A DNA stretch of 64,000 nucleotides from Eledone cirrhosa (GCA_964016885.1 OZ024753.1:22630001-22694000); one strand, 5' to 3'; shown: positions 39,494 through 47,030, counted from the stretch's first letter. Program-made: numbers and translations. The notes: a model not told the origin generated them from the sequence alone.

Positions 39494-40125
39494 ATGGAAA
39501 AGAATGAAACGAAAGTTCATTTCTCACTCTTAGTACGGCAGTTACTTAAATGTAAGTATGTATGTATACGTACATACATACAATGTATACATACGTACAG
39601 AAGTATGTATATATATACATACATGCACACACACATATATATATATATGTACGTATGGGTTTACCGAACATTTATTATAATGCTCGGTTTGTTTGTAAAC
39701 AAACAGCCCGAATTACGCCGTACAGTGTTTAGGCAACCATCGTCGCCCCTTTGTTCAACACTGACACAGGGACGATGTACTACTTTCAAACTTATTAGGT
39801 ATCGTCAGCATCGTATACCTTTCTGTCAGATCATTGAACGTCTGAAAGTATATACTTTCCTTGTGCATATTAACGGCCGAGTAGCCTAATTTGCATATCG
39901 AGTGAGTTACTCGGCCGGGCGCACCGAAAACGGTAAATGGAAAAGAATGAAACGAAATTTCATTTCTCGCTCTTAGTACTGCTGGTACAAACTGTGTATT
40001 ATAATAAATGTTCGGTAAACCCATACGTACATATATATATATATATATGTGCATGTATGTATATATATACATACTACTGTACGTCTGTATACATATATGT
40101 ATGTACGTATACATACATACATACA
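39494..40125 (-). mobile_element. Family D repeat: one full 443-bp period plus an inverted piece; HHR at 39772-39814
   Basis: atggaaaagaatgaaacgaaa...cttagtac at 39494 and 39937; 39998-40125 is the reverse complement of ~39545-39680. Confidence 0.75.
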
Positions 40126-41174
40126 TTTAAAAACACATATATATATATATATATATATAACCATATATATATATATATAAACACGCACACACACACACAC
40201 ACACACACACACACACACACACACACACACACACACACACACACACACACACACACACATATATATATATATATATAAACATATATATATATATGTTTAT
40301 ATATGAATATGTATATATGTTTATTTATATATATATATGTTTATATATAAATATATATATGTTTTTATATATGTGTGTGTTTATATATATATATATATAT
40401 ATATATATATATGAAAATTAGAGTTAAAACTCAATTGGAACCCTGCAACTATTAAGCTCAAAGTATAAATACTGAGCTCAAAGTATAAATACTGAGGGCG
40501 AAACAGATTAGGGATAATCTGTCCGAGAGATATAATGGTTATTGAGGCGGTTTGTATATTTTATCATTCTGTCTGCTTCTTGGTTAAATATTTCAAACAA
40601 ATGTGGTTTTTCAACCCTTGTAATTTTAGACACACGGTTTACTCCGTTTCTTACTATATATATATATATATATATATATATATATATATATATATATATA
40701 TATATATATATATATATATATATATATATATTTATATAAATATATGTTTATATATATGTTTAGTAAAATAACATTAAAGTTTAAGCAAAAAATCTCTTCT
40801 TTCACCCATAACGAGATCATCTGAAACTAACAAAATAAATCTGTGAACGCAGAAGTAAATATTTCGAAAAACATTTCAACCGAAGGAAGACAGGAAGACG
40901 ATACTTTGGTTTGTGGAAACGTTCCCTTGCAAAGAACGGAAAAAACGAAGATAATATGTCATTATTTGAAGTGGTGAAAATAATTACACGCAAAGACATT
41001 ACCACGTTTATATATATATATGTTTATATATAATGCTATATATAATGCTATATATATATGTATATATATATGTTTATTATAATGCTCGGTTTGTATGTAA
41101 ACAAACAGCCCGAATTATTAGCCGTACAGTATTCGGCAACCATCGTTGCCATTTTGTTCAACACTGACAAAGGA

Positions 41175-41217
41175 ACGATGAACTAGTTTCTAGCTTATTA
41201 GCAGTCATCAGCACCGT
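41175..41217 (-). ncRNA. Minimal hammerhead (family D)
   Basis: Minus strand acggtg CTGATGA ctgctaataagcta GAAA ctag TT catcgt. Confidence 0.65.
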
Positions 41218-41411
41218 ATACCTTCCTGACAGATGATTGAACGTTTGAAAGTATATATAAATATATATATATATATATATAAATATATATATATATAAAT
41301 ATATATATATATATATATATATATATATATAAATATATATATATATATATATATATATATATATATATATATATATATATATATATATATATATATATAT
41401 ATATATATATA

Positions 41412-43827
41412 ACGAAGGAAATGTGGTAAGGAACCAGGTGGACCATAATGCACCAAAGTACTCAATACTTAGGATAGTAGAGTGGGTAATAGGAACGAGT
41501 AAGACCCCGACGGCTGAGCTCAAGCCGTTTCGACGGCTAATTCTGGACTAAATGAAAATTGTTATCCTGGTATTTGAATAGCCGAGCTTCTCAGGGGGTA
41601 ATTCCATATATGGTAAAAGTGATTGTCACAAGGATTGGTAAAAAGTTTGTTGTTGAAACAATAATTTTATCATGGCAATTTGTGGAGGGAAGGGGTAGCT
41701 GAACCTCCCAGTAGAAGAAAGAGGGAGAGGGGGTGGAGGAAACCCAGTCGTGCGTTGATAGTGCCAACTACAGCTGGGCAGGAGGTCAAAGAAGATACTA
41801 GGGAGGGGGAGGGGGAGGAAGTCGAAACAATAAGTAAAACAATATGGGGTAAATATATAGAAAAATACCGAGAGTGTTAAAAAACAATTAAATGTAAAAA
41901 CAAAAAAACAATTTCTGGTTACTATAACCTAAGGACAGCTATCAAGTCTCTCACTGGTACTGCTAGACTAAAGAACGGTTTACTAGGTGGGACGGAATTA
42001 TAATGAGACCCTTTTAAGAGGTATAAGTAAACAACATCTTACGGTGACGGGTCAACAAGTGGGGGGCCAAAATACTAAAGAAACTACCACAAAATAATAA
42101 TTCAGAGTCCCGAGAGCAGTACGAAATAAAGGTTTCTACCCCAGGCACAACGCCAGCAACCACCCAGTGCAAAAAAAAAAAAATAATAAATAAACTAATA
42201 CGAAATAATAATTCAGAATCCCGAAAAAGAATACTAATACTATCTCTAAGGGTGCCGCCACGATACAAAAATTCTAGTGCAAACTACATAAATGCTCGAT
42301 ACGGAAAATTAATTCAGAATCCCCCCCCCCCCAAAAAAAATACTGATATACGAGAAATTAAAGCAAAGATACCACTAAGAAATATAGAAAGCACGGAAAA
42401 GGGGAAGCCATCGGATAAGAAGGCAAGTATCCGGGGTCTAACACATCTGCTATAAAAAGCGGAGTCGGCCAAATCTATCATAGAATAGGGGAAGGGGTGG
42501 GGGAACTGAGGCTACAAAGGACCGAGGGGCTGCCTCGGGTGGGCGAGAAAGTAAAAGGACGACGACAAAGAAAGAGGACTGGGGTGGAAGGACTAGGGAG
42601 GGATGGGGGAAGAAGGAAATATAGAGGAAGCGATAAAAAGATATAAAAGAAGATCTTACGTCTACCTTTGCAAGCAGGGGTTACCCATTACAAAATCGGC
42701 AAGTGGGGTGTTATAGCCCTAGTCTCCCCCCCCCCCGCGGGTCATTATGGGGTTTGAGGACGAGGTAAGTCCTACGCAATCTGTGTTTATATGCAGTTAC
42801 CAGTTCATCTTTCTTGTTTAGGAGTTGGTCCATTGAAAACAGCATTTGTAAAGTTTCCTCCGAGCATAAATTGCACGGACGGCGTCCTCCCGTGTAAGAG
42901 TTGGCTCTGGACAGTAAGCTCCAAGTGAGATCATAGGTAATATTATTATCCTTGAGGTCCCATATGTGGCCCGAAAGTGTAGTGTCGTGAGGCCGGGCCG
43001 GGTTTCGGAAGGTATGTCTGTGTTGGTATAGCCGGGTCTTGAAGTCACATGCGGCTAATCCTATATAAGCTTTGATGGAGGTGTCCGTCCTCACATTGCA
43101 CTGGTAGATCACATTACGATCTCTGCATCTGTTGTCGAGGGGGCAAATGGATCCATCAGCACAGTTGCACCCCCTGGTCGGCTCTCCACTGCTATTTAGG
43201 TTATTTCTTCCATAGGGGTTGAATTATTATTTAGTGGACTCTGAATTATTATTTAGTGTTAGTTTCTTTAGTATTTTGGCCCCCCACTTGTTGACCCGTC
43301 ACCTTAAGATATATTCGGTTGTTTACTTATACCTCTTAAAAGGGTCTCATTATAATTCCGTCCCACCTAGTAAACCGTTCTTTAGTCTAGCAGTACCAGT
43401 GAGAGACTTGATAGCTGTCCTTAGGTTATAGTAACCAGAAATTGTTTTTTTTTTTTACATTTAATTGGTTTTTAACACTCTCGGTATTTTTCTATATATT
43501 TACCCCATATTGTTTTACTTATTGTTTCGACTTCCTCCCCCTCCCCCTCCCTAGTATCTTCTTTGACCTCCTGCCCAGCTGTAGTTGGCACTATCAACGC
43601 ACGACTGGGTTTCCTCCACCCCCTCTCCCTCTTTCTTCCAATGGCAGGTTCAGCTACCCTTTCCCTCCACAAATTGCCATGATAGAATTATTATGTTTCA
43701 ACACCAAACTTTTGAGCAATCCTTGTGACAATCACTTTTCCCATATATGGAATTACCCCTTTAGAAGCTTGGCTGTTCATATACCAGGATAAAAATGTTC
43801 ATTTAGTCCAGAATTAGCCGTCGAAAC
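41412..43827 (-). mobile_element. 5'-truncated Penelope-like element with ~600-bp inverted pLTR (43220-43827 versus ~41525-42110)
   Basis: Minus ORF CNCADGSICPLDNRC...NVIYQC...YIGLA...FKTRLYQH...CNLCSEE...LNKKDEL; HHR-like motif 41504-41599. Confidence 0.85.
42711..43200 (-). pseudogene. PLE GIY-YIG endonuclease domain (truncated ORF)
   Basis: ORF 42711-43112 plus upstream CxCx5Cx5C motif. Confidence 0.85.
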
Positions 43828-45549: not shown

Positions 45550-45615
45550 TATTTTATCTGATGAAAGCGCACCATAATTTGCCTTGGTGGCCCTTGAAAT
45601 ATGTATAATAAAATA
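45550..45615 (+). ncRNA. Type I hammerhead (family E) in a partly inverted mini-element (45325-45675)
   Basis: tattttat CTGATGA aag...ctt GAAA tatgta TA ataaaata. Confidence 0.7.
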
Positions 45616-45689
45616 AATATGGTTTTATAAATATAGTTTCCATTTGTTAATATATTGTATATAAATATATACTCTTTTACTCTTTTACC

Positions 45690-46083
45690 TGATTCAGCAA
45701 CCCGGCTGAGGCCATGCTGGGGCACCGCCCTTGTTGCCATATATTTTATCTCCAGCCTGTATAGGTTGGCCACTGGTGTAAGAGGGAGTTTGTTGCTGCT
45801 GCCCCTAGGTTTCATTCGTGCCTTGCTGTGGGCTCATGCGGGATCCTAGATAGCAAGATGTCGAGATGTTTCGTGAAGACATCCACCTCCACGCCATGCA
45901 AATCTCTCAGATCCCTCGGCAGCTTGTTGAAGAGTTGAGGGCACTTGAATCCCAGGCTATTGCAATACCTGCTTCTCATTCTTGATGTGGAATACAGTGA
46001 CGTCCTGTTCGACGGTTGGTCCAGCTCCCAATGCCAAAGTTTGGTGCTAGTCCCTCCAGGATTTTCCACATGTAGATCACTGC
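45690..46083 (-). mobile_element. 3' end of a CR1/Jockey-group LINE
   Basis: [13 protein letters not shown] and [14 protein letters not shown]...[16 protein letters not shown] in two minus frames. Confidence 0.7.
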
Positions 46084-46289
46084 ATATATATATATATATA
46101 TATATATATATATATATATATATATATATATATATATATATATATATATATATATATATATATATATATATATATGTATATGTATATATATATATATATA
46201 TATATATATATATATATATATATATATATATATATATATACATATATATATATTTATATATATATATATATATATATATATATATATAT

Positions 46290-47030
46290 GTAAGTATGTA
46301 TGTATACGTACATACATATATGTATACAGACGTACAGTAGCATGTATATATATATATATATATATATATATATATATATATATATATATATATATATATA
46401 TATATATATACACATACAGGCACACATATATATATGTACGTATCAGTTTAGTGAACATTTATTATAATGTTCGCTTTGTTCGTTTGTAAACAAACGGACA
46501 GCCTGATTTATGCCGTACGGTGTTAAGGCAACCACGTCACCTTTTTGTTCAACACTGACACAGGAATGATGTACTAGTTTCAAGCTTGTTAGCTATCGTC
46601 AGCACCGTATACCCTTCTGCCAGATGGTTGAACGTTCGAAAGTATATACTTTCCTTATGAAAATTAACGGCTGAGCAGCCTAATTTGCATATCGAGTGAG
46701 TTCAGTCGGCCAGGAGCACCGAAAACGATAAATGGAATAGAATGAAACAAAATTTCATTTCTCGCTCTTAGTACGGCACTTACTTAAATGTAAGTATGTA
46801 TGTATACGTACATACATATATGTATACAAACGTACAGTAGCATGTATATATATATATATATATATATATATATATATATATATATATATATATATATATA
46901 TATATATATATATATATATATATATATATATATATATATATATATATATATATACATACAGGCACACATATATATATGTACGTATCAGTTTAGCGAACAT
47001 TTATTATAATGCTCGGTTTGTTCGTTTATA
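46290..47030 (-). mobile_element. Family D repeat, about 1.5 tandem periods of ~500 bp; HHR at 46566-46608
   Basis: gtaagtatgtatgtatacgtacatac at 46290 and 46790, each followed by the same internal (TA)n and gtacgtatcagtttag. Confidence 0.75.

Follow-up and report, generated by a model that had tools for sequence, protein, structure and literature searches.

How does a short repeat that encodes no protein come to lie in several partial, seemingly permuted copies within one stretch of a genome? The question is raised by 64,000 nt of DNA from Eledone cirrhosa (GCA_964016885.1 OZ024753.1:22630001-22694000; the window), AT-rich eukaryotic DNA with many (TA)n tracts and broken mobile elements. In the window, blastn delineated five insertions, with six arms, of a 443-bp unit lacking an open reading frame (ORF), here called family D (insertions D1 to D5, Table 1). 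An initial annotation had placed five copies at these positions, described them as beginning at different phases, and taken this as the result of reverse transcription of a circular RNA. The ends of the copies point elsewhere. Family D is likely a non-autonomous retrozyme-like element without long terminal repeats (non-LTR) that was copied in trans by the reverse transcriptase (RT)/GIY-YIG protein of a Penelope-like element (PLE), and the sequence data support a template that was longer than one unit and spanned an uncut hammerhead ribozyme. Below, unit positions are given in the ribozyme sense over 443 nt, u1 being window position 39777, the first base past the predicted cut. Statements on the literature refer to the available sections of the papers cited.

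The five copies are present, and blastn, nhmmer, a covariance model and two motif scans yielded no further convincing copy in the window. The remaining nhmmer matches are microsatellite columns or weak, rows with a G+C content of 0.25 or less (D2 and part of D5) having been left out, and a repeat search of the whole window was dominated by (TA)n. Both reported periods hold as well. The 443-bp return is that of a 55-nt tail (39491-39545), which recurs at 39934-39988 with 49 of 55 positions identical and is followed there by an inverted arm; the 500-bp return leads from 46290 to 46790, with about 240 bp in common. As had been proposed, the difference of 57 bp lies almost entirely in one internal tract, which is (TA)5 in D3 and (TA)33 in one pass of D5 (the other pass has (TA)55). 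Since its location does not differ between D1, the two D3 arms and the two D5 passes, this tract is part of the unit and not a relic of the target site. The insertions measure 0.2 to 1.5 units. With the microsatellite excluded, the four copies that carry a hammerhead are pairwise 82-89% identical, whereas pairs with D2 reach only 67-86%, because the 5' part of D2 aligns poorly.

In the ribozyme sense, the 3' ends lie at u287 (D1 and D2), u285 (D3 main arm), u232 (D3 inverted arm), u228 (D5) and about u107 (D4). Thus, five of the six fall at two sites about 55 nt apart, u228-232 and u285-287, which are the only two CATTTA motifs of the unit. When ends were drawn at random, two 5-nt windows took in five of six in 44 of 100,000 cases under a uniform distribution and in 445-467 of 100,000 when only AT-type sites were allowed; for 10-nt windows, the corresponding values were 356 and 1,790-2,126 per 100,000. 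When each insertion contributed a single end, three of five within 5 nt occurred in 616 of 200,000 uniform draws and in 3,279 of 200,000 draws from TA/AT sites. The segment between the two sites is an optional tail, with five motif-scan matches in the window versus 0.00 expected, and the D2 and D5 tails differ at only 2 of 54 positions. The 5' ends, by contrast with the 3' ends, are scattered without significant clustering; a common 5' end near u80-86 (D3 inverted arm and D5) was rejected, as it was equalled in 52,880 of 200,000 random draws. The reported start at different phases was therefore not confirmed: the copies at 6295, 25050 (on the opposite strand) and 39494 share the end at u285-287, and D5 and the D3 inverted arm share that at u228-232. 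The impression arose because D2 had been read from the wrong end and because the copies are 5'-truncated. With five of six 3' ends in two 5-nt windows, the phases no longer serve as evidence for a reverse-transcribed circle. Fixed termini, which the initial annotation had itself named as refuting its proposal, are present at the 3' ends and absent from the 5' ends.

Such ends are known from PLEs. In AT-rich DNA, both strands are cut and extended by a purified PLE protein, which begins reverse transcription at two sites within the RNA; what lies between these sites becomes an optional tail in the genome, and uncleaved RNA is the main substrate (PMC11167929). The genomic footprint of PLEs comprises partial tandems, an inverted 5'-truncated copy, a tail of 30-40 bp, a bias to (TA)n and non-autonomous members that form tandems (PMC8557442, PMC2377424). 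In family D, the D3 main arm consists of tail, body and tail, similar to the PLE form with a direct tail repeat on either side of the body; in D5, a unit without tail follows a truncated unit, and D1 and D2 are truncated monomers with tail. Like Penelope/Poseidon and Chlamys/MRC1, family D combines an optional 3' tail, a full unit after a 5'-truncated copy, an inverted 5' arm, AT-rich or microsatellite targets and a hammerhead upstream of the 3' ends; unlike them, it lacks an RT/endonuclease ORF and its 3' ends lie 228-287 nt past the cut site. Nine of the ten outer flanks (40 nt) of the insertions are 82-100% A+T, in a window that is AT-rich as a whole. A two-end pattern is also seen in other elements of the window. 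In an ORF-bearing GIY-YIG element at 26.2-30.05 kb, the direct arm ends 84 nt and the inverted arm about 185 nt past the CUGA, and in a second hammerhead family, E, nine of ten listed 3' ends lie at +94 to +104 or +181 to +188, the tenth row being a 5' fold-back (matches under 15% G+C were left out). The 3' ends of a third family, X, are looser (+86 to +107), and a fourth family has only two rows.

Family E has at least six loci (7849-7998, 9381-9480, 30129-30432, 45329-45665, 47056-47328 and 61406-61680). Its 3' ends recur at two points, and an inverted pair lies at 30129-30341. The ORF-bearing element (26215-30054) has a 5'-truncated PLE ORF (26396-28219), an inverted arm whose 3' end lies about 100 nt further out, and a canonical hammerhead at 29964-30008 (Rfam RF00163, 29.1 bits, below the gathering score).

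The ribozyme of family D, whose position on the minus strand had gone unmentioned, is a type I hammerhead in D1, D3, D4 and D5, with the core (scored as C3-A9, G12-A15, U16 and H17) intact in all four. A covariance model built from these four hammerheads scores them at 123-130 bits, and its next match in the window at 17.5 bits. The Rfam hammerhead model is absent for the D copies from the best 150 of 166 Rfam matches at E<=1; the top matches were microRNA models on TA repeats and were dismissed as low-complexity. No match to the hammerhead pattern was obtained in prokaryotic genome contigs. Helix I consists of 5 bp, a 4x2 internal loop and another 18 pairs. In helix II, 4 bp lie above a U.U (three copies) or C.A (one copy) that replaces the conserved canonical G10.1-C11.1 pair; helix III has one pair and a palindromic cap that, in three of the four, is able to self-pair between molecules (self-duplex -4.8 kcal/mol). 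Pairing is found in 104 of 112 hammerhead pair cells (92.9%), versus 35-46% in slid controls. The long helix I belongs to the minimum free energy (MFE) structure in D1, D4 and D5 (z -2.05, -1.26 and -2.72), and the 55-nt cores folded alone give non-significant values (z -0.2 to -1.05).

Four copies had been annotated with a minimal hammerhead, the one at 39772 (D3) with a helix III substitution. The four hammerheads and the substitution are there, but the build appears canonical rather than minimal by the definitions of PMC4209133. There, the canonical type I has a helix I of about 6 bp plus loop, a helix II of 4 bp and a helix III of 1-2 bp with a small palindromic loop. The minimal hammerhead of PLEs, with a helix II of 7-8 bp, a helix I of 4-5 bp with an ill-defined loop and no helix III, does not correspond to that of family D. 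The U10.1.U11.1 pair is a reported natural variant (PMC3088659, PMC7229834), and looped extensions of helix I aid amphibian hammerheads (PMC6155905). Family D resembles the amphibian satellite hammerheads in several respects: a 1-bp helix III with a palindromic tetraloop, as in axolotl HHR_Amex1; the U.U at the helix II base in three of four copies, as in axolotl Amex2 (both PMC7229834); and the helix I extension with an internal loop, as in newt satellite 2 and axolotl. The likeness is drawn from structure, and family D differs in joining both weak features in one motif. Of the small nuclear RNA-type promoter of newt satellite 2 (PMC2220036), family D has only an octamer-like 8-mer, an unsupported echo. 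As a promoter candidate, the octamer/TATA pair is kept as a lead only, the 8-mer having five matches versus 6.7 expected, no better than chance; the 26-nt invariant run that holds the 8-mer would be expected about 0.2 times, given 232 invariant columns of 286 (hand estimate). Self-cleavage is plausible for family D and unproven for any single copy.

The absence of an ORF from the copies was confirmed: the two open frames of more than 100 aa in family D contain no Pfam family, and the best blastp match among 253 retroelement proteins (120 PLE-like and 120 hits like long interspersed nuclear elements (LINEs), 13 ORF pieces from the window) has an E value of 0.17. No DNA similarity was detected to other repeats of the window, ORF-linked ones included, in agreement with the annotation of an independent retrozyme-like family. 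None of the five insertions is attached to a PLE ORF, an attachment that had been named beforehand as refuting that annotation, and none has an RT plus GIY-YIG ORF between pseudo-LTRs (pLTRs). Alternatively, family D could be the ordinary pLTR of an autonomous PLE that has its ORF-bearing copies elsewhere in the genome and only 5'-truncated remains in the window. The tail, the inversion and the use of (TA)n as target all occur in PLEs, the window is rich in ORF-bearing PLE fragments, and most PLE hammerheads are indeed solitary truncated copies (PMC4209133). Both insertions of more than one unit, however, run directly from u287 to u288 and close within 443-500 bp with no ORF between; no trace of coding sequence is left, and canonical-build hammerheads are tied to retrozymes rather than to PLEs (PMC7229834). 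We therefore regard an ordinary pLTR as unlikely.

The non-LTR retrozymes of animals (coral, mussel, axolotl; PMC7229834, 10.64898/2026.07.22.740005) are indeed similar in many ways: no ORF, a unit of a few hundred bp with one type I hammerhead, a G+C content below 50% (0.38 and 0.33 in family D), a self-paired predicted circle and PLEs in the same genome. A head-to-tail junction, another shared feature, occurs in two of the five D insertions, as partial tandems only. Family D differs by its unit length of 443 and 500 bp, at or above the top of the 150-450 bp range, by the lack of an array of at least two hammerheads in the window, by the expandable internal (TA)n domain, and by its inverted arm and the fixed position of its 3' ends at two sites, neither of which the consulted sections describe for retrozymes. 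Family D thus appears to work like a non-autonomous PLE and to look like a non-LTR retrozyme, two categories that the 2026 preprint (10.64898/2026.07.22.740005) argues to be the same, deriving retrozymes from PLE pLTRs.

The inverted arm of D3, likewise absent from the initial annotation, informs about the template. The segment 39987-40130 is an inverted copy of 39546-39692; the inverted arm stops at u232 and the direct arm starts at u233, so that, taken together, they make up 1.46 units without a break, the upstream third being flipped. The simplest reading is that two target ends were primed on one RNA of more than unit length. On a monomeric circle, the primer would have to switch once a full turn had been completed, a less simple though possible course. 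In twin priming of L1, the 5' part of an insertion is inverted and the inversion point lies beside the end of the direct arm. D3 has the same arrangement; here, however, the second priming falls on a site where 3' ends of the family recur, and the element that mobilises it would be a PLE and not a LINE. A literature search for twin priming in connection with Penelope gave unrelated papers only. At its 5' end, D5 is joined head-to-head to a family E copy via a perfect 60-nt palindrome (47030-47330), and both outer 3' ends adjoin (TA)n; the junction may represent one two-family insertion or a nested insertion. D3 and D5 might record two-ended priming by a PLE protein acting as a dimer, with both ends of one (TA)n cut extended, in D3 on the two fixed start sites of one more-than-unit D template and in D5 on two RNAs (D and E, head-to-head at 47030-47089); this we consider rather doubtful. 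Inverted insertions are common in the window, and head-to-head inverted repeats lie at 1115-1165, 9616-9985, 10122-11218, 39182-39489, 41527-43827 and 60640-60995, several with hammerhead-like motifs in both arms.

Several observations weigh against mobilisation of family D by a PLE protein or against its hammerhead. The clustering statistic was picked after the data had been seen, with only five insertions, and the 3' ends of D3, D4 and D5, at AT-rich junctions, were refined by eye from the flanks because the aligner runs on into TA-rich sequence. The D4 end matches neither site. No target-site duplication is readable in the (TA)n flanks, and the junctions carry TA-type overlaps of 2-4 nt, whereas the start sites in PMC11167929 are not homologous to the target. 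The tail has 55 nt, as opposed to the 30-40 nt reported for PLEs, and no partner PLE was found, family D having no detectable similarity to any ORF-linked repeat in the window. The abutment in D3 is uncertain by up to 9 nt, because the 18 nt spanning the join contain 6 departures from the expected sequence. As to the ribozyme, the long helix I is not the MFE structure of D3, which folds otherwise; over the same 106 nt, the MFE structure is 10-19 kcal/mol more stable than the drawn hammerhead fold; this fold was derived from the same four sequences that score for it; none of its 28 pairs has a compensatory change among these four; and eight of nine predicted retrozymes failed to cleave in vitro (10.64898/2026.07.22.740005).

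The missing covariation, the lack of an Rfam hammerhead match, the failures in vitro and the location of every D copy in unstable (TA)n-rich DNA would also suit a dispersed satellite or a repeat like a short interspersed nuclear element (SINE), its duplications and inversion stemming from microsatellite-driven DNA recombination and its hammerhead match being a passenger or relic. Yet the 3' breakpoints avoid the internal (TA)n tracts and recur at two sites of unique sequence, the core positions are kept in four of four copies within a long pairable helix I, and the nearby ORF-bearing PLE has the same two-end pattern. A satellite origin is accordingly very unlikely, and copying by a PLE protein remains the preferred reading.

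Was the template, then, a circle? Circles are a published hypothesis for retrozymes and PLEs (PMC4209133, PMC7229834, PMC6765202). In its free form, a monomeric circular RNA would be reverse-transcribed from arbitrary points into freely permuted copies. Related retrozymes make circles (PMC7229834); of the D insertions, two are longer than a unit (1.34 and 1.46 units) and four extend across a hammerhead that was left uncut. As a circle, the unit is predicted to fold stably, with z -8.7 and -9.6, or -5.8 and -3.8 once the AU domain is removed, and none of 100 shuffles equals it; the antisense circle, however, is nearly as stable (-96.5 versus -103.2 and -92.3 versus -94.3), so that folding does not single out a circle. 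Between the passes of one insertion only 2 of 88 (D5) and 4 of 88 (D3) positions mismatch, versus 6-10 of 84-88 for different insertions. The two tail copies of D3, however, have 6 differences in 55 positions, a divergence as high as that between separate insertions. The shared private variants show that each insertion had one source; they do not separate a circle from a homogeneous tandem. Moreover, the 3' ends are not free, and when the inverted arm was primed, the RNA of u86-232 would already have been paired with first-turn cDNA, which entails the primer switch mentioned above. Free permutation from a circle is therefore improbable, and the distribution of the ends gives nothing in favour of a circle. 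If its start sites were fixed at two positions, on the other hand, a circular template would fall under copying by a PLE protein. We lean somewhat away from a circular template and towards its alternatives, a linear multimer or successive RNAs. Back-spliced reads at the hammerhead site, the test put forward in the initial annotation, are not diagnostic of a circle, because religation would restore the very sequence found in uncut genomic DNA.

None of the five insertions has two or more hammerheads, and therefore none in the window qualifies as an active retrozyme as defined in the 2026 preprint. Since each holds at most one, no insertion can release a monomer from cut to cut, and the D insertions of the window are probably dead ends. 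The divergence (82-89% identity between most copies versus 0-3 substitutions per array unit) supports family D being older, as annotated, than a ~559-bp array in the window; roughly, D5 would be about 3 My and D3 6-10 My (million years) old, by hand estimate at 0.0036 per My (PMC13282606), a rate that may not be that of the host. This array (50200-55346) has about five units in one direction and four in the other, inverted near 52934, with TA-rich outer ends. Its first four units differ by 0-3 substitutions and contain CUGAUGA with no match to CUGANGA...GAAA. Rolling copies are more likely to be represented by this array than by family D.

Copying by a PLE protein could proceed as follows. A source locus with at least two units, of which the window holds no example, would be transcribed. 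With a 1-bp helix III and a palindromic loop, as found in the copies, the hammerhead would cut mainly as a dimer, by analogy with the activities in PMC4209133 and PMC7229834, and a lone copy may stay uncut in the RNA. The PLE endonuclease would cut (TA)n DNA, and an enzyme like that of PMC11167929 would start inside the RNA at u228-232 or u285-287, the observed ends, giving copies without or with the 55-nt tail. Synthesis would pass the hammerhead, reach the upstream unit in two cases and stop at variable 5' points, as the copies record. In D3, the second target end would also be primed, at u232, yielding the inverted arm. The (TA)n tract, in a self-paired domain of the unit, would change in length by slippage.

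No description of a cephalopod retrozyme or of family D turned up in the literature searches made; the family may be catalogued under another label in the O. vulgaris Zenodo repeat library, in Repbase/Dfam or in the supplements of the NAR 2020 paper or the 2026 preprint. The O. vulgaris supplement (PMC13282606), in the sections available, has no match for hammerhead, retrozyme or ribozyme and attributes 6.83% of the assembly to PLEs. Mobilisation of animal retrozymes by PLEs has been proposed from co-occurrence and pLTR homology (PMC7229834, 10.64898/2026.07.22.740005), in the preprint mainly for vertebrates. Family D adds evidence of another kind, an ORF-less hammerhead repeat whose ends show a PLE tail and inversion. 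Its value lies in this end anatomy: with a 443-nt substrate and two predicted RT start sites, the link between PLEs and retrozymes, two-ended priming and the origin of tandem and inverted PLE copies become testable on a very small scale. If D3 and D5 did arise by the rather doubtful two-ended priming of a dimeric protein, and if the template were a circle with a length-tolerant AU-repeat domain, cephalopods would carry PLE-parasitic circular RNAs with an expandable microsatellite, which target and seed (TA)n. Retrozyme mobility would then be tied to PLE chemistry via insertion anatomy, and the tandem and inverted structures of PLEs would be explained.

Table 1. Features of family D in the window (unit positions in ribozyme sense).
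Feature	Position	Strand	Extent and remarks
D1	6287..6676	-	u302 to u287; 0.97 unit; tail present; about 25 nt missing near u55-80
D2	25052..25149	+	about u190 to u287; 3' fragment with tail, without hammerhead
D3 main arm	39491..39988	-	u233 through full unit to u285-287; tail, body, tail; 1.12 units
D3 inverted arm	39987..40130	+	u86 to u232; 3' end adjoins TA/CA repeats
D4	41073..41257	-	u367 to about u107; 0.4 unit; (TA)n at both ends
D5	46288..47033	-	u80-82 through full unit to u228; 1.34 units; no terminal tail
D1 hammerhead	6515..6601	-	predicted cut 6540/6539; core and palindrome intact
D3 hammerhead	39753..39839	-	extended helix I; predicted cut 39778/39777; probably inactive, two helix II pairs and helix III palindrome broken
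D4 hammerhead	41156..41242	-	predicted cut 41181/41180; C.A at helix II base
D5 hammerhead	46547..46633	-	predicted cut 46572/46571; core and helix III palindrome intact
AU-repeat domain	39557..39656	-	u122-221; self-complementary; contains two tracts of (TA)n; closed by a helix of 7-8 bp in either circular fold
D3 tail, 3' copy	39491..39545	-	u233-287; 55 nt, optional; weak hairpin possible (z -1.0, not significant)
D3 tail, second copy	39934..39988	-	5' end of D3 main arm; 49/55 identical
D5 internal tail segment	46729..46783	-	runs head-to-tail into u288; no ORF between
Invariant block	39883..39908	-	26 nt unchanged in the three covering copies; octamer-like 8-mer at 39889-39896
TATA-like palindrome	39845..39858	-	upstream of hammerhead; D4 5' truncation falls inside it, into (TA)n

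Apart from these families, the window contains several GIY-YIG-bearing Penelope-type ORF pieces. A compact hammerhead-like motif recurs in a 230-bp repeat (48609-48652 and 63718-63761), the second copy about 430 nt after a broken RT/GIY-YIG-like ORF. Weak Rfam matches were obtained to a ribozyme of the hepatitis delta virus (HDV) type at 22614-22692 (28.3 bits, E 0.33) and to a tRNA-like sequence, possibly a SINE head, at 38802-38859 (36.3 bits). A broken Helitron (17976-22170) retains pieces of Helitron_like_N and PIF1 helicase in several frames. Two ORF pieces at 36967-38036, without a Pfam match, resemble a hAT-family transposase and lie beside a 40-bp minisatellite (36670-36995). Finally, a LINE RT on the minus strand (56511-59447) has an open frame of 978 aa with RVT_1 and zf-RVT, without an N-terminal endonuclease; its best named relative is from Argonauta hians (62% identity), which, for this one protein, points to a probable octopod host, with a cuttlefish protein at 37%.

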